Positions 23,437 to 42,966 of a stretch of DNA of 64,000 nucleotides are shown here, in pieces; positions within the stretch are counted from its first letter, which is position 1, and every line of letters starts with the position of its first letter. The notes below the pieces were generated by a model, which worked only from the letters and a program-made list of their open reading frames with translations, did not search any database and was not told the DNA's origin. The stretch lies in the IMG/VR virus record IMGVR_UViG_3300029705_000098; one strand, given 5' to 3'. Origin of the DNA: an uncultured virus (IMG/VR IMGVR_UViG_3300029705_000098) (lineage: Duplodnaviria > Heunggongvirae > Uroviricota > Caudoviricetes). The position numbers and the translations under genes are program-made.

Positions 23437-23724
23437 TTAGAAGAGTGTAGTCTGATTATCGGCAAGATGTTTTTTCCAACAAACATCTCCATACCCGCGC
23501 TGTTGCGCCTCTGGGTTTGTAAGTTTTCTCCCACATCTAATACACTTTGGGATTGATGAGCCCTTATCTAACTTATCGAACACAGACTTAACATCAACTT
23601 TTGGAATTTCCCTACAAACTCCTTTAATGCACATCGTATCTTTGAAATGCACCGTTACTTCCTCATTTATTTGCCACTCGGGTACATCCTTAATTTCGAT
23701 ATATGCTTTTACATACTTTGTCAT
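23437..23724 (-). CDS. DUF6011-like zinc-finger protein
   Basis: C.RCGRKLT.P....RGYG..C. Ends in QTTLF. Confidence 0.65.
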   Translation of the reverse strand: MTKYVKAYIEIKDVPEWQINEEVTVHFKDTMCIKGVCREIPKVDVKSVFDKLDKGSSIPKCIRCGRKLTNPEAQQRGYGDVCWKKHLADNQTTLF

Positions 23725-24671
23725 AGAATATTTACCAACAGATAATCAATCGACAACTCATCTTCAATTTTGCCTGTGATTATTCCTTTCTGTATTTTCT
23801 GTATCATCTTTAGTATTCTAAAGAGTTCATTCGTTGTGTAGTAATTGCACTTATCCTTTGCACACTTTACCTGCCAAGGAGTAAGTCCTGTGGATTTGCA
23901 CACTTCTTTACCTTCATACGATTGTACTTGTAATACTTGTTTGGCATTATTGTACAACACAGAAAGTATTACCATACTCGCCTCATTTACTTGTCGGCAC
24001 TGGTCTAACAGATAGTAAACATCATTAATCCTTCTCTTTAGGATAGCATCAACAAGGTCAAATATAGCATCTTTAGGGGGAATTGAAAATGCTCCCTCTT
24101 TTAAAAGATACTCAAATGCAGTATCGTATCGTGATTGACCCTCTATCTTACTCTCTACTGCCATCAAATACTTCTTAATCTTGTCTATCTCTAAAAGTAT
24201 ACGTGAATAGTCATTCTCACATATAGCGATTAAACGCTCACAATTAGCGTTATTTAGTTTTATCTCACGTTGACAATACTTGATAAGCATTTCAGTTGAT
24301 AAGTGCTCAAACAGAACGATTTTATCAGCATTGGCCTTATAGAATTTTGTGCGCTTATCTGTACTTGTAACAAGATTGATAATTACATTTCCGTTCAATC
24401 GGTTATGCTCTATTTGAGACTGAAGTGTATCGTCTTGTAATAAGTCTTTATCATCACGCACAACATACACACGAGGATTTCCAAACAATACAGGACTTGT
24501 TATATCTTCCCAAACTTCCGAGATGCTATCCACACGTAATACTTCGTAGTTAAGAACTTCCGCTATCTTATTTATATAAATTCTTTGGATTTCTATCTCA
24601 TCTCCAGAAAATATATAGTAGGGCTTAATCGTTTTGTTCTTAATATCGGTTTTTACATCAGCGATATTCAT
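23721..24671 (-). CDS. holA: Clamp-loader delta subunit-like protein
   Basis: YIFSGDE, LFG, EIDK and IFDLVDAI in HolA-like order. Confidence 0.75.
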   Translation of the reverse strand: MNIADVKTDIKNKTIKPYYIFSGDEIEIQRIYINKIAEVLNYEVLRVDSISEVWEDITSPVLFGNPRVYVVRDDKDLLQDDTLQSQIEHNRLNGNVIINLVTSTDKRTKFYKANADKIVLFEHLSTEMLIKYCQREIKLNNANCERLIAICENDYSRILLEIDKIKKYLMAVESKIEGQSRYDTAFEYLLKEGAFSIPPKDAIFDLVDAILKRRINDVYYLLDQCRQVNEASMVILSVLYNNAKQVLQVQSYEGKEVCKSTGLTPWQVKCAKDKCNYYTTNELFRILKMIQKIQKGIITGKIEDELSIDYLLVNIL

Positions 24672-25498
24672 GCCCAATCCTCTCGTATTGAAACAACCCA
24701 CTGGTCAAACAGCATTTGCTTATTTATACCACGAATGTTTAACTGCTGTGCGTATTCCCCTGTAATCCCGATTGCTCTCGCATACTTAAGCGGGTCATCT
24801 CCGCTCTTCATTCTATCTACGCACAAAACATTAAATGCTTTCCAAAACAGTTTAAGACTGTACTTATCTTCCTCGTCCTTAAGCGCAATATTGTTGCCTA
24901 TCTTAAAAGCGTTACTATCCTGAACATCTGCAATATTATCAATTACTAAATTCACGTAACTTATAAAGTCTGGAAGATTTGTGGACCATAAGTAATTAAT
25001 GTCACCGGGAGTAGTCGCAGTATCTAATGCAAACTCTATTTCTTTATCTGTCCATTTATTCATGTCGTACATCATATTTACATAATCACACTTATCCATG
25101 TAAGAATAAGGTTCGAGCATATAAGTTACTCCTCTACTTCTAATCGTAGAGAGTAAATTTTCCTCATTTTCACACGTAAGTATAAAATACGCATTCCTGG
25201 GAGGCTCTTCTGTGACTTTCAAAAGCGCATTTGCGGCCGCAAGAGAAAGATTATCACAATCAGGGATTATATAAAAGATTGGCAAATCTGCTTTATAGCA
25301 CGTTTCTATGATATTTCGGATTGTGTCTACTTTAATATCAGGAGCAACCCACGCCGCGCGTCCCGACATTTGCGCTATACTCTTTGCAAGTTCCTTTTTA
25401 CCGCTTCCTTTTTCTCCTATCAAAATAGAAAATCTAGGAAATCTATCTCTCTCTACCTGACCACCTATCTTATTAAGTAGTTCCAGTTGTCCTACCAT
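24668..25498 (-). CDS. holB: Clamp-loader delta-prime-like protein
   Basis: GEKGSGK, AANALLKVTEEPP and TIRSR motifs. Confidence 0.8.
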   Translation of the reverse strand: MVGQLELLNKIGGQVERDRFPRFSILIGEKGSGKKELAKSIAQMSGRAAWVAPDIKVDTIRNIIETCYKADLPIFYIIPDCDNLSLAAANALLKVTEEPPRNAYFILTCENEENLLSTIRSRGVTYMLEPYSYMDKCDYVNMMYDMNKWTDKEIEFALDTATTPGDINYLWSTNLPDFISYVNLVIDNIADVQDSNAFKIGNNIALKDEEDKYSLKLFWKAFNVLCVDRMKSGDDPLKYARAIGITGEYAQQLNIRGINKQMLFDQWVVSIREDWA

Positions 25499-25788
25499 TA
25501 CTCTTCTCCCTCCTCTAATGCCTCGAAATGCTCATCAAGACATAATCCGTTCTTGTCATACCACTCGAACCAGCCCCGCGCATCTTCGTCCCACTCCTCA
25601 AGACCTGCCGCAGAACAGTGGTCACTAAAAACGCCCTCTTTGATTTTTGTGTTAAGGAAACGAGCGATACTGTCAATTACGAGTTTTGCCTCTTCAGGTG
25701 TCTTGACTTCCTGATAATAGGGGTCTGTACCTAAAATCGTGTACCATACTCTTAACTTCTCCTCCATGTTAATTCTCCTTATTTTCAA
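25498..25788 (-). CDS. Small acidic protein resembling the P22 gp17 family
   Basis: KLRVW...V...EEA...D.C...GL......W.EWYD pattern. Confidence 0.5.
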   Translation of the reverse strand: MKIRRINMEEKLRVWYTILGTDPYYQEVKTPEEAKLVIDSIARFLNTKIKEGVFSDHCSAAGLEEWDEDARGWFEWYDKNGLCLDEHFEALEEGEE

Positions 25789-25935
25789 TCAGTTTGCGAA
25801 CTTTTTTCATAAGTTCCTCTTGTTTTGTAACTAAAAGATAAATTACAACTTCTGTGAAAATTAATGGAATGAGTTATTGATAACTCTAACAGTTCAAGTT
25901 CCTCTTTAGTAAAATCGTTCATTTGTTCCAAGCTC

Positions 25936-26256
25936 CTATAACTGATTTCCGTATTTAACCAAAGTACAATTTGAGGAGTGAACCAAATAAGTTTTTCCCT
26001 CTACAGTTATCTGTAGTTGGTCTCCGTCCTCAAAGTCTCTCCAGGAAGTAACTTTTCCCTCAACAACCTCTCCGTTCTGTAACTCGATATACGCATAATC
26101 ATATGCGTAAGTTAAATCTATCGTATTATAATTACACGCAGTAATTATCCCTGCACACATAATCAATAATATCGCAACAATAGAAAGAATAGCCTTAACT
26201 TTACCCAGTTTCACGCTCATATCAAGTTCTTTCTTATAATCATTAATGCACTTCAC
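25936..26256 (-). CDS. Putative lipoprotein
   Basis: Hydrophobic signal followed by an ITAC lipobox-like site. Confidence 0.6.
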   Translation of the reverse strand: MKCINDYKKELDMSVKLGKVKAILSIVAILLIMCAGIITACNYNTIDLTYAYDYAYIELQNGEVVEGKVTSWRDFEDGDQLQITVEGKTYLVHSSNCTLVKYGNQL

Positions 26257-26314
26257 GTTGTTTCTCCTCTTTGTAAATCTTTGTGTTTATAAGAACACAC
26301 ATTAAACCAGTACA

Positions 26315-27322
26315 TTACTCTCCCGTAATACACCACGCCTCAATTCGTGCTTTAGGGTTTGTATCCCACTTTATATCTGCTTGCAAATTAATCAATGCAG
26401 ATAACAGTTCTTCCTGTGTATTAACATTCTCGTACTCAAGGAACGCGGATGTTATATCTTCTGTCATAGGGCAATTCAAATATCCCTTAGCACCCAAAAT
26501 CCACTTACTAAAATCAAGGATAAAGTTTGTGAAATGCTTTATGAACTGTTTTAAGTCATAACCCGACATATACACTTCATTAATTATCTTAAGGCGCTCT
26601 TCCTTGTTATAATCAAAATATGCCCTGAACATTCTTAATAGCAAGTCATAACTGGGTATTCCAAGTGCTTTAACTACACTATCAACGGTTAAATTCGTTG
26701 AGTAGGACAAGCACTTATCCAACATAGTAAGCGCATCTCTCATATGTCCTTGTGCCTGTTTTGCAATATACTCAAGTGCGGATTTTTCTGTTTTTCCCTT
26801 AATATTTTCACTCTTAAGAACATAGGATAATCTATTCGTTATTTCCTTTTGACTAATCATTTGGAAATCAAATCTCTGCGCACGGCTTAAGATTGTTCTA
26901 GGGATTTTCTGCGGGTCAGTTGTACACATAATAAATATAGATTTTGCAGGGGGTTCTTCAAGAACTTTCAACATAGCCTGCCAAGCACTGTTTGATAGTG
27001 CGTGGACCTCGTCCATAATGAATACATTATACTCACTATTTAAGGACGCTGTCTTTGCCTTCTTTATAATATCTCTTACATCGTCTACGGAATTATTACT
27101 TGCGGCATCAAGTTCAATAGGATTACCCTTTCCCTGATTAATTCTATTTGCAAAAATTCTTGCACAAGTTGTTTTACCCGTTCCTGCTCCCCCGCAAAAC
27201 AAGTAAGCATTTTTAAAATCTCTCTGTTCCAACTGTTGCTCAAGAACTACTTTGGTAGCGGTCTGTTCAACAACTTCGTCAAAGCTATTGGGCCTGTATT
27301 TAACGGCTAACGACATACTCAT
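26315..27322 (-). CDS. dnaX: Clamp-loader gamma/tau-like ATPase
   Basis: LAVKYRP, G..GTGKTT, ELDAASN, DEVHAL, LEEPP and G.MRDA motifs. Confidence 0.9.
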   Translation of the reverse strand: MSMSLAVKYRPNSFDEVVEQTATKVVLEQQLEQRDFKNAYLFCGGAGTGKTTCARIFANRINQGKGNPIELDAASNNSVDDVRDIIKKAKTASLNSEYNVFIMDEVHALSNSAWQAMLKVLEEPPAKSIFIMCTTDPQKIPRTILSRAQRFDFQMISQKEITNRLSYVLKSENIKGKTEKSALEYIAKQAQGHMRDALTMLDKCLSYSTNLTVDSVVKALGIPSYDLLLRMFRAYFDYNKEERLKIINEVYMSGYDLKQFIKHFTNFILDFSKWILGAKGYLNCPMTEDITSAFLEYENVNTQEELLSALINLQADIKWDTNPKARIEAWCITGE

Positions 27323-34925: not shown

Positions 34926-34960
34926 AAACAAAAGTAGGAGCGATATTTCACGCTCCTACT
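34926..34960 (-). terminator. Terminator after the clamp gene
   Basis: AGTAGGAGCG/CGCTCCTACT stem followed by a T-run. Confidence 0.8.
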
Positions 34961-34985: not shown

Positions 34986-36083
34986 TTACGTTTGCTTCAT
35001 CAGTGCAATCATTTGCGTCATATCCCCATCAATCAACTTGATACAGATTTCATTACCGTAATACAGGTCAACAACATCAGAACTATACGCCTTTAACTGA
35101 TTTCTAAGCCTGTCAATATTAATCTTAAACGTAATATCTTGTACATCTTTACTCTCCGTGTACTCAACACGCTCAATACCGCTACTTGCAATAGACGATA
35201 CTTCGACATACTTATCAGTAAAGTGCAGTTCGATAGCACCTTCATCAAACTTGCTTACAAACAAGGAAAGTCTATCGAGAAGTTCTAACATTTGAGATTT
35301 CTTGAAACGACAGAATGATGGAACTTCAAATGCAGAAAACTGGTTAATAGCATCTATATTAAAGTCTTTTATATCGTTTAATACGGGAGTACATATCGCA
35401 ATTCCGCACTTCTCTCCTATAGTTGCCTCTGCAACAAGCATATCATCACTTCTTGAAAGTGCTACATCTGAAGCACCAACTCCCATCAACTCTACGAACT
35501 TTCGGTCAAGCAAGTAAGGTGTATCAAAAATCTTACGATTAAAGGTGCTCATCATTATCCTGTCTGTACCTGCAATAAAGTCACCAAAAAAGTAATATGA
35601 GTAAATACTTCCTGCAACTGAACTCAATGAGGGTTTAACAGTTGTATTTATTGCAATAACATCGGGTGCAGTTATCTTTCCAATATCTGTTGTATCTCCA
35701 GGGAACTTATCAGGGAAAGACAACGGGTTTCCTTCATCGTCAACAACCAGTTCGAGGCTATACTTTCCGTTTCCTTTTACGATAAGGGCGTTATCATCTA
35801 CCTCAAGTTCAACTGTTTCTGAATTAATCTTTCCAACAAGTTTTGAAAAGGTATCTGCGTTTACAGTAACGTCCATATCATCTGCAACACAACTATCGGA
35901 TACACTCAAATAGTTTGTTCCATCAGTTGTATTAAGATATAATACTCCATCGTCTACTCTTATTCCGATAAAGTTAGACAATTCAAGAAGTTTATTAAAA
36001 CCTGCTCCCTGAATTGCATAAGATACCAACTGCTTCAATCTCTCTGTGCTAAATGTTGACACTGTTCTATCCTCCTTTAACAA
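34986..36083 (-). CDS. dnaN: DNA sliding clamp (beta-clamp-like)
   Basis: 365 aa, acidic. TTDG, GTD and LLDRLSLF motifs. C-terminal MIALM as in DnaN. Confidence 0.72.
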   Translation of the reverse strand: MLKEDRTVSTFSTERLKQLVSYAIQGAGFNKLLELSNFIGIRVDDGVLYLNTTDGTNYLSVSDSCVADDMDVTVNADTFSKLVGKINSETVELEVDDNALIVKGNGKYSLELVVDDEGNPLSFPDKFPGDTTDIGKITAPDVIAINTTVKPSLSSVAGSIYSYYFFGDFIAGTDRIMMSTFNRKIFDTPYLLDRKFVELMGVGASDVALSRSDDMLVAEATIGEKCGIAICTPVLNDIKDFNIDAINQFSAFEVPSFCRFKKSQMLELLDRLSLFVSKFDEGAIELHFTDKYVEVSSIASSGIERVEYTESKDVQDITFKINIDRLRNQLKAYSSDVVDLYYGNEICIKLIDGDMTQMIALMKQT

Positions 36084-36310
36084 TTAATTGCGTTATCAAG
36101 ATTTCCTATATCTTCTTCAAGACTATCCACAACATCGCCCATAATATCTATTGCGTCTGACATTGCAGAACCCTTTTCTCCGTCTTGAAGAGACTCCGGT
36201 AAGTTATCGTATGCGTCTTGCTCTTCGCCTTGACATTCCTCAATAATTGATTTTGCCTGGTCCATTAAGGTCTGAGCCTCTTCCAGTCTTTTTCTTCTTG
36301 ATTTGTTCAT
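36077..36310 (-). CDS. Small acidic helical phage protein
   Basis: MNK.RRK.L...EEQ.AYDNLPESLQ.GE pattern. Confidence 0.6.
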   Translation of the reverse strand: MNKSRRKRLEEAQTLMDQAKSIIEECQGEEQDAYDNLPESLQDGEKGSAMSDAIDIMGDVVDSLEEDIGNLDNAINC

Positions 36311-36323
36311 TAGTCTTTCCTCC

Positions 36324-36911
36324 TTAAATATGCACTAATTTACGTTCTATTTCATTTCTTAAATCAGTGTTTGTCTTAAATCTTCCGTGAAGGACTGTAA
36401 CATCTGTAAATCCGTCACTCTTTGCTCCTCTGGCAGATACGCAAGCGTGGTCTCCTTTAATGTTTACGAATACATCGGGTGAGCCGGTTGCAAGTGAAAT
36501 ACACTCCGCTATATCTTCTGCCATTTTCTCTTGAAGTTGCAATCTCTTGGAACACAAATCAACAATTCTAGGAATTTTAGATAATCCAATTACTTCGTAC
36601 TTGCCGTCTTCAATCTGTCTTGGGATATAAGCAACTGTTACAGTCATATTAAACATCAAAGCCAAATGATGTTCACAGTGACTGTATACATTCTTCACTT
36701 CTTTAACAACAAGTGGGTCAGAAGTTGTAATGAACTTCTTGGAATACATCTTGGCGATTTCTGCATTGGTATATTTCATACCCTCAAGCAGTTCTTCCCA
36801 ATATCCTGCTACTCGTCTTGGAGTATCAACAAGTCCTTCTCGTGTCACATCTTCTCCAAATGCAACAAGTAAATCTTTAATAGCCTGTTCTACTTTTGCT
36901 TTATCCATCAT
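36324..36911 (-). CDS. folE: GTP cyclohydrolase I
   Basis: REGL.DTP.RVA, CEHH, GLSKI.R, LQLQE and H.C...RG motifs. Confidence 0.95.
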   Translation of the reverse strand: MMDKAKVEQAIKDLLVAFGEDVTREGLVDTPRRVAGYWEELLEGMKYTNAEIAKMYSKKFITTSDPLVVKEVKNVYSHCEHHLALMFNMTVTVAYIPRQIEDGKYEVIGLSKIPRIVDLCSKRLQLQEKMAEDIAECISLATGSPDVFVNIKGDHACVSARGAKSDGFTDVTVLHGRFKTNTDLRNEIERKLVHI

Positions 36912-37540
36912 ACACCTCTTTTATTAGGGTCCCATATATACTTGTGTAACTGAATTTGCATACGCCAATTATAAAGTTTGTGGCTCTTCAAAAATTCTGC
37001 AATCTCAACCAATTCAATTTTACCAAATACAGGGCTTACAAAGATTTGAGCAACAATTCCATTTTCTTCAACAAACGAAAGTGCCTGATTAAGGTCCTCT
37101 GCGCTTGATACAACAAACTTTACAACGTCTGTGGTATCAAGAGCCTTAAACGCCTCTATATTCATCTTATCAGATACTCCGCTACACTTTGTTTTGTAGT
37201 CAACGGTATACAATACTCCATCAACTTCAGGAACAATAGAACCGTTTGTTTCGACATTAACTTTGTAACCCTGTCGTACTAATTGTTCGAGTAGTGTGCT
37301 GATGCCGGGTTGAACTAAAGGCTCTCCTCCAGTAATAGTAACATTGGGACAGTGATATACTGCCATCTCATCGAGTATTTCCTGGATACTCATTACTCGA
37401 TATTCAGTTCCCTCACAAGCATATCGGCTATCACAATAAGAGCACTTAAGGTTACACCCAAAAAATCTAACAAATACGCACGGTATTCCTGCTCTTGCGC
37501 CTTCACCTTCGATACTGTAAAAAATCTCATTTACTCTCAT
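36908..37540 (-). CDS. queE: 7-carboxy-7-deazaguanine synthase (radical SAM)
   Basis: EIF.SI.GEG, CNLKCSYCD, TGGEP, ETNG and QLHK motifs. Confidence 0.95.
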   Translation of the reverse strand: MRVNEIFYSIEGEGARAGIPCVFVRFFGCNLKCSYCDSRYACEGTEYRVMSIQEILDEMAVYHCPNVTITGGEPLVQPGISTLLEQLVRQGYKVNVETNGSIVPEVDGVLYTVDYKTKCSGVSDKMNIEAFKALDTTDVVKFVVSSAEDLNQALSFVEENGIVAQIFVSPVFGKIELVEIAEFLKSHKLYNWRMQIQLHKYIWDPNKRGV

Positions 37541-37543
37541 AAA

Positions 37544-37897
37544 TCACTCCTCAAGGTCGTAAGTTGCGATGTTTCCTTCACTCTCTTGGACCGTTACTCG
37601 ATAACAATAGCCTACCTCACATATCTTAGTAACCTCATCACAAATCCATCGTGCTAAATTCTCTGCGGTAGGGTTGAAGTCAACAACATCGTTGATGAAC
37701 TGGTGGTCAATTTTATCGCTGATTACTTCCTTAATCTTCTTGAAATCGACAATCATTCCATAATCGGTTAATCTATTTGCTTTACAGGAAATAGTAATAA
37801 TCCAGTTATGGCCGTGTATATTTTTACACTTACTCTCATAAGGAAGATTAAGATAATGTGCTCCTGCAATCTCTAATCTTTTTGTTACGTAATACAT
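37544..37897 (-). CDS. queD: 6-carboxytetrahydropterin synthase
   Basis: AH.L, C...HGHNW, DH and PTAEN motifs. Confidence 0.95.
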   Translation of the reverse strand: MYYVTKRLEIAGAHYLNLPYESKCKNIHGHNWIITISCKANRLTDYGMIVDFKKIKEVISDKIDHQFINDVVDFNPTAENLARWICDEVTKICEVGYCYRVTVQESEGNIATYDLEE

Positions 37898-38278
37898 TTA
37901 CTTTTCCTCCATTTCCCACGGAAATACAATCCAATTATCTTCTTTTCTACATAAATAATTATCGGGAACTACTCCCAGCGTGTTGTGTTTATAATACATT
38001 GTTGCTATTTTGTAGTCTTGAGCCTTGTCACCCGAACTATTCTTAACGTAATGAAGTAAGGACTCTCCTGTGTCACAAATATCATCTACAATTAAACACC
38101 CAGGTGCAGGACTCATAAGCAAAGGAATTTTCAGTTTATGAGAAAGCATAACTGCCAGTACCAATCCGCCTCTAGGGAGACCATATACCCCGCTATACTT
38201 TATTCCCTTACGTCTGCTAATGTCTGTCATATAATTAACAAACTCTTCGACTTGCTTCCAAGTTACATATTCTTTCAT
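37898..38278 (-). CDS. Type I phosphoribosyltransferase (Gpt-like)
   Basis: RGG loop, LIVDDICDTGES PRPP motif, C-terminal WIVFPWE. Confidence 0.88.
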   Translation of the reverse strand: MKEYVTWKQVEEFVNYMTDISRRKGIKYSGVYGLPRGGLVLAVMLSHKLKIPLLMSPAPGCLIVDDICDTGESLLHYVKNSSGDKAQDYKIATMYYKHNTLGVVPDNYLCRKEDNWIVFPWEMEEK

Positions 38279-38280
38279 AC

Positions 38281-38982
38281 TTAATCTCCTATCGCAGGGT
38301 CTTTGATACCATTTTCTTCAAATGCCTTTGCTCTATCAATACAAGTACCACATTTTCCACAAGGCTTATCGCCACCCTTATAACAACTCCAAGTAAGATG
38401 ATAAGGAGTATTAAGAGACAACCCCAATGAAACTACTCCTGCCTTATTAAGTCGTACAAGCGGTGCTACAAGATGAACCTTATTGTAAGTTCCAATAGAT
38501 ATTGCGCTATCCATAGCAGATGTAAATTCCTCTGAACAATCAGCGTAGGCCTCTCCCGCGGCATCATCTGCGTGTGCTCCTAAATAAATATCAACATAAT
38601 CATCTGGATACAAAGACATAGCAAGTGCCGCAACTGCCGACAACATTAACCCATTTCTAAAAGGAACATATGTCGTAACCATTCCCTCTCCGTTTTTTGC
38701 TATCTGCTCGGCGTATGAAAGTTCAGGAACTTCTTCTGTTGACTTGCTCAATAACGGACAATTACTATCGTCCATTATGTGAGTATTGGATAGGTCAATA
38801 ACACGATGAGATACCCCAAAGAAGTTTGCTATCTTCTCTGCACACTCTAACTCCTTACTATGTTTCTGCCCATAAAATACGGAAACAGTAGTCACGTTTT
38901 GTACTCCCACATCTCTGATTGCAATAGAGATACACGTTGTGGAATCTACTCCTCCACTACTCAAAACTAGTGCTTTTCTCAT
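38281..38982 (-). CDS. queC: 7-cyano-7-deazaguanine synthase
   Basis: SGGVDS, YGQKH, YVPFRN, Y.DC and TWSCY...CGKCGTC motifs. Confidence 0.95.
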   Translation of the reverse strand: MRKALVLSSGGVDSTTCISIAIRDVGVQNVTTVSVFYGQKHSKELECAEKIANFFGVSHRVIDLSNTHIMDDSNCPLLSKSTEEVPELSYAEQIAKNGEGMVTTYVPFRNGLMLSAVAALAMSLYPDDYVDIYLGAHADDAAGEAYADCSEEFTSAMDSAISIGTYNKVHLVAPLVRLNKAGVVSLGLSLNTPYHLTWSCYKGGDKPCGKCGTCIDRAKAFEENGIKDPAIGD

Positions 38983-38994
38983 TTTTGTTCCTCC

Positions 38995-39825
38995 TTAAAA
39001 TAAATTTATCTGTGTTAAATTTGGTTGTGTCGCTTTCTTCTCTTCTCTTTGAAGCAACCACTCCCTCATAAAGTCAAGATTGAAACGTATGCGCTCTTCC
39101 ACTGAATTAGATATTTTCTCAAAATCATACCCGTGATTTTCAACATAGTTAATTATGAATGGGTCATACAGCCCTCGTGTTTCAGAAACGATAAGCCTGC
39201 CGTACTCACTTAACAACTCACCATTAATCGCGGCGAAATACCAAGTAGAACTATCGGCGCTGTATATCCTGTCCCAATACTTATCAAGTAACTCTAATGT
39301 TGATACACCAAATAAATGTACTTTATGAGACTTCGGGATTATTGAAAAACACTCTCGTAAAAATGTATCTCTAACCCCAGTATTCTTTATCGGAGCAATT
39401 CCGCCCAATGCGATATATGGAGCATTATCGCACAATCTCTCCAGATACTTTAAGTTTTCTCCAAAGTGAAATGTAGGGATAACTTTAGAAAATGCTTCAG
39501 GGTTTAAACGTGTTCGCATATAATTATAGTTTTCTAAATTCTTATCACTACAATCAGGAGTTTTGCCAATAATATCCAAAGAGGCTACAGCCTCATAAGA
39601 GAGATGATGAGCATTAATAAAATCACAATACGCATCTATATCCAACGATATGCTTTTTCTCATAGCACTGAAGGCTCCTGAGTCCAAAAACACTTTTTGA
39701 GGGTAATTGAAATACTTTTCTAACGACTTTCTATCAACATAGAAACTGAATAGTCTGTTAAATCCTAATTCCGTAATGTAATCATCTAATGGACTATTGC
39801 AACTTGCGGATAAATAAAAATTCAT
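38995..39825 (-). CDS. dpdA: TGT-fold DNA 7-deazaguanine transglycosylase (DpdA-like)
   Basis: FLDSGAFS, LD.IG, P.FH, YIALGG, HLFG and SADSSTW motifs. Adjacent to the que genes. Start MNFYLS overlaps the polA stop. Confidence 0.78.
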   Translation of the reverse strand: MNFYLSASCNSPLDDYITELGFNRLFSFYVDRKSLEKYFNYPQKVFLDSGAFSAMRKSISLDIDAYCDFINAHHLSYEAVASLDIIGKTPDCSDKNLENYNYMRTRLNPEAFSKVIPTFHFGENLKYLERLCDNAPYIALGGIAPIKNTGVRDTFLRECFSIIPKSHKVHLFGVSTLELLDKYWDRIYSADSSTWYFAAINGELLSEYGRLIVSETRGLYDPFIINYVENHGYDFEKISNSVEERIRFNLDFMREWLLQREEKKATQPNLTQINLF

Positions 39826-42173
39826 ACTGCTACTCTTTCTCCATACCATTCTCGTGTAATTTCAACATCGCACTTAAACGGCATACTTAATATCTTCTCT
39901 GCGGCCTTTGACATTACTTCTGCTAAAAGGGTTGCACACTCTTTTGCATTTTCTTCAGGACACTCTGCTATGATTTCATCGTGAACAGGAACTAACATTC
40001 TGAAACCTAATTTCCTGAGTTCTTCGTTATTGTACAAGTCAATCATAGCCAACTTAGTTAAGTCTGCGGCAGACCCTTGAATACGAGCATTAACACATTG
40101 TCTTGTGGCGTCTGCTATCTTTCCGCCATTATCAATAATGTTTATCCCGTCTTTTTCTCTGGCCTCATCAATGATTTTGCGCTTTTGCCAAAACTTCGCT
40201 TGCTTTAACTTTCTCCAATACTTGTTGCAGAGTTCTTCAGGAACTTCTGTATTAACTTCTCCGTCAAAGTCAAGTACATCATCTGACTTAGGAGCATCTA
40301 CCCACTCGAACTCATATTCATCAAGTTGCAAATCAGGTAATCTTCTCTTACGGCCACAGATGGTTGTTACATATCCTAAATCTTCTCCCATCTCTAATGA
40401 CTTTCTCTCGAATATCATTATCTCTGGATACTTCTTAAACAGATTTGCTTTTAACTTCTTTGCCTCTTCAAAAGTTATACCCATTCCTTCTGCTACGCTC
40501 TTATCTCCTCTACCATATAAGATACCTAACAACACTGGTTTTGCTTTATTTCTAATTGCTTTGCCTTCTTTGTTAGTAGTTCCGTCAGGATTATGCTCTA
40601 AACATTGTTCGTAAGGGAGATTAAAACAAGCACTTGCTACTGCACTGTATAAGTCTCCTCCACTACGCCTAACATCATATAGTTTGTCATAACCCATTTC
40701 TTTACAGAATGAAGCAAGGCAAGAAGGCTCTTGCTGTGAGTAGTCACTTGACATAAGAACATATCCAGGACTTGCTATAAACATCATACGTGTTTTATCG
40801 TGAGGGATATTCTGCATATTAGGTTCTTCAGAACTCATACGGCCCGTGTCCGCCCCGTACTGATTAAACTTACAGTGTACTCTTCCGTCGTTCGGGTTTA
40901 AGTTCTCTCTAGGTATCTTATCAATATAAGTTCCTAAAAGTTTATCAATCGCACGACATTCAAGAATAGCACGTGTGAGTTCAGTATCCCATTTTGTTAA
41001 AATCTCTTCTCCCGTACCACGTGGACTTTTATCATCAACAACGTCATATTCAAGAACGTCATAAAACAGAACTGCCAACTGTTGAGGACTTCCTATGTTT
41101 ATGGGAGTAGACAATATTGGCTTAGGTCTCTGCTCTTTTCCAGCGTGTATAAGATTGAATTGATTTGCATTACGATTATACTCATCAATCTTGGGTTGTA
41201 ACTCATCTATCAACGCATAAACTTTCTGCAATATCTGGTCCTTTTTAGCGTGATACTCTACTGATAACTTTTTAGAATACTCGGTATCAAGAAGAATACC
41301 CGTATCTTCTACTTCACACATTACATCTACTAACGGCATTTCGATATTAAAGAAACACCACGCTACACCATTCATACCGTTTCTATCGCTAAAGGGCATA
41401 TCTGGGTCATAGTACAAATACTGTTTTTGAAACTCCACGAGTTCGTGTGTTACAACTCCGTCGTGAGCACCATACAAAGTTGCAATATCAATAGGAACAA
41501 TGTCGAATACTTTTATTCCGAGTTTCTTAAAGATGTCCGCAAAACTAAACTCATCTGTCTTTCCTTCAAGCACATACTTTGCGTGTAAGTCTTTCAGTCC
41601 TCGTTTACCCTGAGGCTCATTCTCATTCATACTACGAGCGGCAAGATATCCGTCCCACGTACAGTGCAACATAACACCCAAGTCGTTCTTAATAAATCTC
41701 GTATCGAACTTAGCATTAAACATTTCACACTCTTTAATGCCTACTAACAACTCAAGATATTTTGCAACGACTTCAGGGCTTAACTGATTTGATAATAACT
41801 CACCTGTAATATATGAGATATGTCTAATCGGGATATATGCAGGACTTCCACCAGGATAGTATAAACATATACCCACAATCTTATCGAGCATCGGGTCAAG
41901 TCCTGTTGTTTCGGTATCAATCGCAACGCACTGTGCTTTAAGACACGCCTTAATATAAAACTCCAACTGCATTTCAGTAGTAATCGTTGTGTATATATCA
42001 CGATACTTTCCCAAATACTCATCAACAAAATCGCGGAGACGCTTTATCATAGAAGATATACTCCCGCTTTTTACAACGGGAGTATTTTTCTTTGATTTAG
42101 CCGCTCTGGCTGTTGATATATCTGAACTCTTATCGGGACGAGTTAAATCACCGAACAATGACAACTGTTCCAT
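39822..42173 (-). CDS. polA: Family A DNA polymerase with 3'-5' exonuclease
   Basis: DTETTGL, TGRMSS..PN.QNIP, DYSQQE, K...LG..YG and VHDE motifs. N-terminal QLSLF. Confidence 0.95.
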   Translation of the reverse strand: MEQLSLFGDLTRPDKSSDISTARAAKSKKNTPVVKSGSISSMIKRLRDFVDEYLGKYRDIYTTITTEMQLEFYIKACLKAQCVAIDTETTGLDPMLDKIVGICLYYPGGSPAYIPIRHISYITGELLSNQLSPEVVAKYLELLVGIKECEMFNAKFDTRFIKNDLGVMLHCTWDGYLAARSMNENEPQGKRGLKDLHAKYVLEGKTDEFSFADIFKKLGIKVFDIVPIDIATLYGAHDGVVTHELVEFQKQYLYYDPDMPFSDRNGMNGVAWCFFNIEMPLVDVMCEVEDTGILLDTEYSKKLSVEYHAKKDQILQKVYALIDELQPKIDEYNRNANQFNLIHAGKEQRPKPILSTPINIGSPQQLAVLFYDVLEYDVVDDKSPRGTGEEILTKWDTELTRAILECRAIDKLLGTYIDKIPRENLNPNDGRVHCKFNQYGADTGRMSSEEPNMQNIPHDKTRMMFIASPGYVLMSSDYSQQEPSCLASFCKEMGYDKLYDVRRSGGDLYSAVASACFNLPYEQCLEHNPDGTTNKEGKAIRNKAKPVLLGILYGRGDKSVAEGMGITFEEAKKLKANLFKKYPEIMIFERKSLEMGEDLGYVTTICGRKRRLPDLQLDEYEFEWVDAPKSDDVLDFDGEVNTEVPEELCNKYWRKLKQAKFWQKRKIIDEAREKDGINIIDNGGKIADATRQCVNARIQGSAADLTKLAMIDLYNNEELRKLGFRMLVPVHDEIIAECPEENAKECATLLAEVMSKAAEKILSMPFKCDVEITREWYGERVAV

Positions 42174-42883
42174 TAGAACCTATCTCCGCGACCTCTTCTT
42201 GTAGTTGCTCTTTCGCTACGTGCTGTCTCTCTTGTACTCTCTCTACGAGAGCGTGTGTCCTCGCCTCTACGAACTACGTTCTCTCTCTCTTCCTCAGGGA
42301 ACTGTTCGTGCTTAAGATAGTATTCCATATCTTCTGCTGACTTATCCATTATCTTTGTTCCGAGAGCAGACGGAAGTTCATCAAAACCACAATCTGCAAG
42401 AATATCGTCAACAGTTGTTCCGTCGGGCTGTCCTACTGGGTAGAAAGAATAATCAGACTTCTTTCCCTTTGCTCCGTGTCTCTCTACATCGAATACTTGT
42501 GAAACAATGTGAGGAAATCTTCCACAAAGGCTTGAAAGTTGACTATAAAAACTATTGGGTCTATCCCAAAACTTAATTGCACCATCTGTCTCGTCGAACA
42601 CAGGGATATAAACTCTTGCCTGTCTCTTAAGTCCTGCCTGACAAAAAGGACAATCTGAAACTGTGCCTTCACTGTCAAAAAGACAATTTACGGGCAACTC
42701 GTAGTCTCCCACTTGAACTCTGTGAACTACAAAGCCCTCAATATCTTCTGCTCCATCGTATAGAAGTCTAATCTTACCTGTATCTTTATCATCTTTCAAG
42801 GAATTAAAGTAATTAATCTTTGTTCCGTCTCCACTTCCTTCGTTCCTAAACTGTTCAATGTTTGCACCTGTTAATCTTGCCAT
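42173..42883 (-). CDS. Single-stranded DNA-binding protein (gp32-like)
   Basis: H...C...CPFC zinc site. Located between primase and polymerase. Confidence 0.6.
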   Translation of the reverse strand: MARLTGANIEQFRNEGSGDGTKINYFNSLKDDKDTGKIRLLYDGAEDIEGFVVHRVQVGDYELPVNCLFDSEGTVSDCPFCQAGLKRQARVYIPVFDETDGAIKFWDRPNSFYSQLSSLCGRFPHIVSQVFDVERHGAKGKKSDYSFYPVGQPDGTTVDDILADCGFDELPSALGTKIMDKSAEDMEYYLKHEQFPEEERENVVRRGEDTRSRRESTRETARSERATTRRGRGDRF

Positions 42884-42937: not shown

Positions 42938-42966
42938 ATTATACTAAATGATTGCTTCAAAGTCAA
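42938..42966 (-). promoter_or_regulatory. Sigma-A promoter with conserved spacer
   Basis: TTGACT-ttgaagcAATCATTTAG-TATAAT. Confidence 0.8.

Follow-up and report, generated by a model that had tools for sequence, protein, structure and literature searches.

A conserved C-terminal tail on a phage DpdA-type DNA transglycosylase as a putative docking motif for a phage-encoded sliding clamp

We analyzed a 64,000-nucleotide stretch of DNA (hereafter, the window) from an uncultured virus of the Caudoviricetes (IMG/VR record IMGVR_UViG_3300029705_000098), which encodes a DpdA-like DNA guanine transglycosylase with a short C-terminal tail resembling bacterial beta-clamp ligands. Comparative analysis of this tail makes it fairly probable, in our judgment, that DpdA modification is physically tied to replication through a clamp-docking tail. 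Judged from its gene content, this ~72-kb uncultured phage encodes its own bacterial-type replisome, comprising a DnaN-type clamp, a three-gene clamp loader, PolA, a single-stranded DNA-binding protein (SSB), a helicase, and a primase, and the same phage encodes a full preQ0 pathway together with a DpdA-type DNA transglycosylase. The elements on which the argument turns are listed below, with structure models from AlphaFold2 (AF2) and TGT standing for tRNA-guanine transglycosylase.

38995..39825, minus strand: DpdA-like DNA guanine transglycosylase, 276 amino acids (aa); phrog_887, E = 1.6e-42; AF2 model TGT-like
38998..39036, minus strand: DpdA tail KATQPNLTQINLF, with low model confidence; its last five residues, QINLF (38998-39012), form a putative clamp-binding motif
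39822..42173, minus strand: PolA, family A DNA polymerase with 3'-5' exonuclease, 783 aa; PF00476 2.4e-80, PF01612 1e-11, phrog_17 4.4e-131
42153..42167, minus strand: PolA residues 3-7, QLSLF, the exact bacterial beta-clamp pentapeptide consensus, read from the translation
34986..36083, minus strand: DnaN-type sliding clamp; phrog_947 8.7e-24, homologue profile, AF2 fold

The initial annotation of this DNA had described DpdA as ending in QINLF directly before its stop codon and PolA as beginning MEQLSLFG, and translation bears out both. It had also placed an ATGA overlap between the two genes, which lies at 39822-39825, where the PolA stop codon TGA (39822-39824) overlaps the DpdA start codon ATG (39823-39825). 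The shared operon with the que genes and a beta-clamp gene, likewise claimed there, corresponds to an operon-like block of ten genes, all on the minus strand in the order SSB, PolA, DpdA, QueC, phosphoribosyltransferase (PRTase)-like, QueD, QueE, FolE, phrog_4068 gene, and clamp, with intergenic spacing of -7 to +13 nt. The longest open reading frame (ORF) of the DpdA-like gene spans 38995-39849 and contains an internal MNFYLSAS, the likelier start; because all 12 close full-length homologues (P0002-P0013, 276-280 aa) begin at this position, we delimit the gene as 38995-39825. The start of the clamp probably lies ~7 codons inside the ORF at 34986-36083, judged by homologues of 355-358 aa.

By sequence comparison and structure prediction, the DpdA tail acts like a short linear motif, with a flexible terminus, a conserved core, and a variable linker. 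The protein ends in QPNLTQINLF, and in the AF2 model the 13-residue tail (residues 264-276) follows the last helix (242-263) with a predicted local distance difference test (pLDDT) score below 50 and is not packed against the fold. Across 14 aligned sequences that are 42-74% identical, conservation reaches at least 90% at Q272, L275, and F276, whereas residues 261-271 vary freely; 12 of these 14 close relatives end in Q-x-x-L-F and 13 in LF, with one QISFM. Relative to the bacterial beta-clamp pentapeptide consensus QL(S/D)LF (PMC9690074), QINLF keeps Q1, L4, and F5. Among 117 non-overlapping ORFs of the window, an [LMI]F ending occurs only in DpdA and in a DUF6011 protein (23437-23724), and an exact LF ending is present in 3 of the 320 stop-to-stop ORFs.

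The tail extends well beyond close relatives. An [LMI]F within the last five residues was found in 58/120 DpdA homologues versus 15/320 window ORFs, and in 63 of 150 DpdA representatives after clustering at 50%. In DpdAs of named phages, LF followed by at most three further residues forms the end of 15/19 proteins: SQGKLF in Flasso, RQRRLF in Dp-1, RVMELF in CAjan, LQDLFDE in 9g, TQGLF in pVco-14, IQELF in JG054, EQRLF in RHEph05, ADLFS in MMDA13, EQMELF in PSASB_03, DPVLF in Ssp-JY38, QQGLFV in BcepGomr, DQPGLF in 1.117.O and GH32, DQPELF in Me-ZS1, and KLELF in 83AMN. The DpdA of Achromobacter phage ART ends in KQMELLG, and those of phiSM, Cracklewink, and Rosebush are without an LF tail.

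Other endings were also observed. Another DpdA group (loci L132-L177 and L049-L068) ends in the pattern P.WPW.FK....GF[GDE][LIF], and one group from phages of 135-166 kb ends in ARRIGL. These GFxL/IGL-type endings may represent a second flavor of clamp ligand.

We then compared the type of ending with the presence of a phage clamp and of a ParB-like neighboring gene. The clamp search took as input 47 of the 80 loci of one set plus L002 and 44 of the 80 loci of a second set, on the larger contigs; two loci were dropped as records already counted, for a total of 89 viral records. C-terminus classes (LF, GFxL/IGL, W..RG, and other) were assigned with our own regular expressions, with the following result.

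LF tail: clamp in 35/39 records, and in 15/15 of those at least 90% complete; ParB-like neighbor in 0/39
GFxL/IGL-type: clamp in 18/19 records, and in 10/10 of those at least 90% complete; ParB-like neighbor in 0/19
Tail-less W..RG: clamp in 0/20 records, and in 0/6 of those at least 90% complete; ParB-like neighbor in 20/20
Other endings: clamp in 8/11 records, and in 2/4 of those at least 90% complete; ParB-like neighbor in 1/11

The four clamp-negative LF records have completeness values of 32-82%, and clamp absence is uninformative in incomplete records. All 15 of the LF-tailed named phages encode a clamp. The clamp gene is located 0-2 genes downstream of dpdA in 14/19 named phages, and the polymerase usually comes next. 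In 16 of the 31 tail-bearing metagenomic loci, PolA is located immediately upstream of dpdA, as in the window. The conservation of a terminal Q-x-x-L-F in DpdA homologues and its travelling with phage clamp genes, which the initial annotation had proposed to look for, were thus both found.

The ParB-like gene follows the opposite distribution. By Pfam, a ParB_N gene lies directly downstream of tail-less dpdA in 16-17 of 23 loci (L100-L160), versus none of the 119 neighboring ORFs of the 31 tail-bearing loci. A local ParB hidden Markov model (HMM), whose result is partly circular as the model was built from 14 of the loci later scored, matched at 20/20 tail-less loci versus 0/58 tail-bearing loci. 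The same local HMM also matches phiSM gp51 and Cracklewink gp1, and it finds no ParB-like gene in the six frames of the window. Rosebush gp1, ParB-like by its record annotation, was matched neither by the local HMM nor by NCBIfam. We considered whether these ParB-like neighbors are DpdB and rejected the assignment, as NCBIfam calls them ParB/Noc-type and no DpdB model matched.

The identity of the two partners was examined by fold and family. The AF2 model of DpdA (pLDDT 85.7) has tRNA-guanine transglycosylases as its top Foldseek matches, with E-values of ~1e-10 and template modeling (TM) scores of 0.64-0.71, and, as a matter of sequence conservation only, D48, D84, H170, and D191 show no variation among 60 diverse homologues. 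In tblastn searches, the window DpdA matches DpdAs annotated in Flasso, Dp-1, CAjan, and 9g; among annotated DpdAs, the nearest belong to Bacillus phage Flasso (31% identity) and Streptococcus phages MS1 and Dp-1 (28%). The gene adjoins preQ0 synthesis genes, with QueC, QueD, QueE, and FolE in the same block. Against the bacterial DpdA equivalog NF041059, the window DpdA scores 24.1 bits versus a cut-off of 200, and it has no Pfam family match at E 0.01; we therefore file it with the phage DpdAs only and not with the bacterial type. Taken together, homology and the modeled fold assign the window DpdA to the phage DpdA group of the TGT superfamily, as a predicted DNA 7-deazaguanine transglycosylase.

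For the clamp, the AF2 model (pLDDT 91.7) indicates a true DnaN three-domain fold, since the top 50 Foldseek matches listed are all DnaN clamps with TM scores of 0.76-0.82. A profile of 46 clamp homologues matches 12 beta clamps of the PDB, the best being 3t0p_A at 3.1e-15. The lone sequence falls under the Pfam PF00712 cut-off (19.5 versus 24.4 bits) and under the TIGR cut-off, and identity between the phage clamp and solved clamps is 12-20%.

DpdA is one of several candidate ligands of this clamp. The initial annotation had assigned a clamp-binding motif to PolA as well, and this motif is conserved: 115/120 PolA homologues carry [LMFI]F in their first 10 residues and 62/120 carry Q.[SDL]LF. 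In the window PolA, QLSLF lies near the N-terminus, in a stretch of ~60 residues preceding an exonuclease domain that starts at residue 61, as placed by domain position only. Polymerases of named phages with the gene order queE-queC-queD-folE-dpdA-clamp-polymerase begin with another conserved element, M..D..G[LMIF]FW[EQD] (12/12; loci L085, L087, L088, L090-L094, L096, L097, L084, and L180), which is a candidate clamp-binding element of these polymerases. The glutamine of the two motifs was scored for co-variation between PolA and DpdA, and among distinct pairs it occurred in both proteins in 2, in neither in 29, and in DpdA only in 4, with 3 unscorable; at locus L008 both peptides read QKSLF by eye. 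These counts are suggestive only of co-variation between the PolA and DpdA motifs.

The beta-binding element of the E. coli delta subunit uses an L-F pair, and the delta-like subunit of the window contains SPVLFG. Just downstream of the delta gene lies the DUF6011 gene, in whose relatives from related phages an xLF follows the zinc ribbon in 9/13 and LW in 2 more, with the [KRNP]xLF at the very end or a few residues before it; the DUF6011 protein may be another clamp client. The delta-prime-like ORF (24668-25498) begins MVGQLELLNK, which matches a loose N-terminal Q..[LMIV][FLM]; this match may be fortuitous or may reflect a misassigned start codon.

Based on these observations, the following sequence of events can be proposed. 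The clamp loader would put the phage clamp on primed DNA, and PolA would occupy one clamp cleft through QLSLF. DpdA would dock in the same kind of cleft via the QINLF of its 13-residue tail, either on the second protomer of the ring or on clamps left behind on finished DNA. Held by the ring, it would slide on the fresh duplex and swap guanine for preQ0, which the operon would make from GTP, such that the genome would be protected while it is copied. Because no QueF or amidotransferase was matched among the scanned genes of the block, the product would be expected to be dPreQ0.

Several points weigh against this coupling, in addition to the limits of incomplete records and of the local HMM given above. 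The motif QINLF deviates from the consensus at positions 2-3 (I-N), and most DpdA relatives keep just a basic stretch and LF, with no Q. The phage phiSM has a clamp, yet its DpdA is tail-less. On a DpdA tree of the 89 records, tail versus clamp gave 4 supported independent contrasts (sign test p = 1), and tail versus ParB-like neighbor likewise gave 4 (sign test p = 1). With just 4 supported contrasts, the raw associations do not count as independent evidence and may stem from a small number of ancient splits between lineages. Published data also argue for caution. The DpdA of 9g alone puts dPreQ0 into E. coli plasmids at 0.03-0.3% of G, and with Gat-QueC the modification reaches 9-18% of G (PMC6884629). 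Rosebush, whose DpdA has no LF tail and which encodes no clamp, contains ~96,530 dPreQ0 per 10^6 nt (PMC6884629), and insertion has been described as post-replicative (PMC10516641). T4 alpha-glucosyltransferase and gp45 resemble the proposed pair in that a phage DNA-modification enzyme would ride the phage clamp; they differ in that no conserved terminal motif is cited for them, and a re-test failed to reproduce their interaction either in vitro or in vivo (bioRxiv 10.64898/2025.12.06.692756). This re-test advises caution, since couplings of this kind require direct demonstration.

Neither the tail nor a phage clamp is required for catalysis or for high modification levels, as argued by the heavy modification in tail-less, clamp-less Rosebush, by the activity of the 9g DpdA on plasmids and, as a third point, by the reduction of the co-occurrence to few independent lineages. 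A clamp-docking tail would probably be an efficiency and targeting device and not part of catalysis.

We next considered other explanations of the tail. The one that survives best, unlikely as we judge it, is that the tail binds another partner or has another role: binding to polymerase or SSB, self-association of DpdA, a basic DNA-binding tail with a hydrophobic wedge, or a stability or degradation signal. TGT enzymes act as dimers. In its favor, most relatives have just [KR][KR]xLF, which is basic and non-canonical for the beta clamp, and the co-occurrence with clamp genes could simply mark one large phage lineage. However, the window tail EEKKATQPNLTQINLF is not basic, and in the AF2 model it stays unpacked against the fold. 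A like motif at the N-terminus of the polymerases makes a C-terminal degradation tag less likely and favors a common docking hub, and SPVLFG occurs in the delta subunit, a member of a clamp-binding family.

A second alternative, in our estimation distinctly improbable, is that the motifs are real clamp ligands for the host beta clamp, not for that of the phage, or for both. QLSLF is the cellular consensus (PMC9690074), and the 9g DpdA, which ends in QDLFDE, acts on plasmids in uninfected E. coli (PMC6884629), both of which are compatible with host-clamp binding. On the other hand, a clamp of their own is encoded in all 25 tail-bearing records that are at least 90% complete and in 15/15 named phages, usually beside dpdA, and the window phage adds its own clamp loader. 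Furthermore, motif flavors differ by phage clade (QxxLF, KKxLF, and QELF), as expected if each were fitted to the phage's own clamp. Finally, chance resemblance or a neutral lineage relic without function, for which one could cite that five-residue motifs arise easily and that the motif is degenerate across the family, was rejected as highly implausible on the basis of the approximately tenfold enrichment over window ORFs, the exact terminal position kept in DpdAs just 28-35% identical with tails of differing length, and the free variation of the adjoining linker.

Docking on the phage's own clamp thus remains the reading we prefer, and it can be compared with known systems. In bacterial beta-clamp clients, which include polymerases, repair proteins, and regulatory proteins, a Q-x-x-L-F on a flexible terminus likewise meets a ring of DnaN fold (PMC9690074), and several clients occur in one genome, as would be the case here for the candidates PolA, DpdA, the DUF6011 protein, and delta. 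In contrast to them, the client in this phage would be a DNA hypermodification enzyme that acts by base exchange, and literature searches turned up no such enzyme among the clients described; in addition, the clamp is encoded by the phage, and many DpdA relatives have just basic residues and LF. Dnmt1-PCNA, as summarized in PMC9690074, is similar in that a DNA-modifying enzyme with a clamp-binding motif marks new DNA; it differs in being eukaryotic, in using a PCNA-interacting protein (PIP) box, and in transferring methyl groups, whereas a bacterial-type clamp and base exchange would be involved here.

With phage DpdA1-DpdA4, the window DpdA shares the TGT fold and the FolE/QueD/QueE/QueC cluster (PMC6884629, PMC10516641), and its identity to the DpdAs of 9g, CAjan, and Dp-1 is 28-33%; it would differ from the account in those papers, where insertion is described as post-replicative. 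Modification genes have been reported to adjoin polymerase genes (PMC10484667). The initial annotation had considered the coupling undescribed for phage Dpd systems, in agreement with our full-text literature searches, in which no paper was found that links DpdA or 7-deazaguanine to a sliding clamp, processivity factor, or replisome. The term "clamp" does not occur in the main text of the DpdA papers examined, including PMC6884629 and PMC10516641, and no discussion of a terminal LF tail or of a link to the neighboring clamp gene was found in the passages of these two that were consulted.

Another system to compare is the bacterial DpdA-DpdB pair. The bacterial enzyme depends on the ParB-like ATPase DpdB, which in its model forms a tunnel broad enough to take up duplex DNA (PMC10164549). 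In both cases, a DNA transglycosylase would depend on or be helped by a second DNA-bound factor; unlike the bacterial system, the window has no ParB-like gene by the local HMM and carries a putative clamp-docking tail in its place. Gene neighborhood points to the ParB-like neighbor of tail-less DpdAs as a phage counterpart of the bacterial DpdA-DpdB pairing. The DpdB dependence of bacterial DpdA and the ParB neighbors of tail-less DpdAs together suggest two alternative DNA-bound helpers. We tentatively extend this to a broader proposal, which we regard as possible yet doubtful, that phage DpdAs need a DNA-encircling helper, of which two interchangeable kinds would exist, a ParB/DpdB-like neighbor in tail-less enzymes or a sliding clamp in LF-tailed ones, and that tail-bearing phages, including 9g, CAjan, and Dp-1, insert the base co-replicatively and in a clamp-dependent manner and not in a free reaction after replication, with the tail setting the amount and speed of genome protection.

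The remaining features of the block and of the clamp-loader region are as follows.

42938..42966, minus strand: promoter-like site 5' of SSB; 11/12 consensus positions, weak evidence
42173..42883, minus strand: SSB, first gene of the block; phrog_14578 3.7e-34
36324..38982, minus strand: preQ0 genes, QueC 38281-38982, PRTase-like 37898-38278, QueD 37544-37897, QueE 36908-37540, and FolE 36324-36911
36077..36310, minus strand: small acidic protein of 77 aa between FolE and clamp; phrog_4068 1.1e-19
34933..34960, minus strand: terminator-like hairpin right after the clamp stop codon; 10-bp stem, then a T-run
23721..27322, minus strand: clamp-loader genes, gamma/tau-like 26315-27322, delta-prime-like 24668-25498, and delta-like 23721-24701
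23437..23724, minus strand: DUF6011 zinc-ribbon protein of 95 aa ending in NQTTLF, a third candidate clamp ligand; PF19474 1.1e-11

Promoter-like and terminator-like sites were no more common in the window than in shuffled sequence, and the operon is therefore inferred mainly from gene spacing. The preQ0 block has Pfam matches to PF06508, PF00156, PF01242, PF04055, and PF01227 (QueC, PRTase-like, QueD, QueE, and FolE, respectively), and the clamp-loader genes match phrog_5846 (8.7e-84 and 3.1e-32), phrog_20214 (4.8e-49), PF13177, PF22608, and PF21694. Elsewhere in the window, family scans identified a DnaB-type helicase, a primase, and helicase loaders. No near-identical phage DNA was found in the reference phage collection.

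The phrog_4068 gene overlaps the start of the clamp ORF by 7 nt, and small ORFs between dpdA and the clamp gene were also present in several named phages. The PRTase-like protein (126 aa) of the preQ0 cluster has its best matches, below cut-off, to xanthine and hypoxanthine-guanine PRTases, and que clusters of other phages contain this domain as well, on its own or joined to FolE; as a guess, it might recycle guanine freed by base exchange. The window SSB ends in TTRRGRGDRF, a basic tail with a final F, while bacterial SSB tails are acidic and of the D-D-D-I-P-F type.

Modification of DNA with 7-deazaguanines shields numerous phages from restriction enzymes. In bacteria, DpdA relies on the ATPase DpdB, whereas phage DpdAs seem to act alone (PMC10164549; PMC6884629). 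A clamp-docking tail, if true, would explain how a large share of phage DpdAs find and open duplex DNA. Modification would then be tied to replication, which might bear on the differences in modification level between subfamilies. The DpdAs of the E. coli phages 9g and CAjan carry the same tail directly beside a clamp gene, such that the idea would be cheap to test there. The apparent either/or of tail versus ParB-like neighbor may also provide a simple annotation rule for sorting phage DpdA systems.

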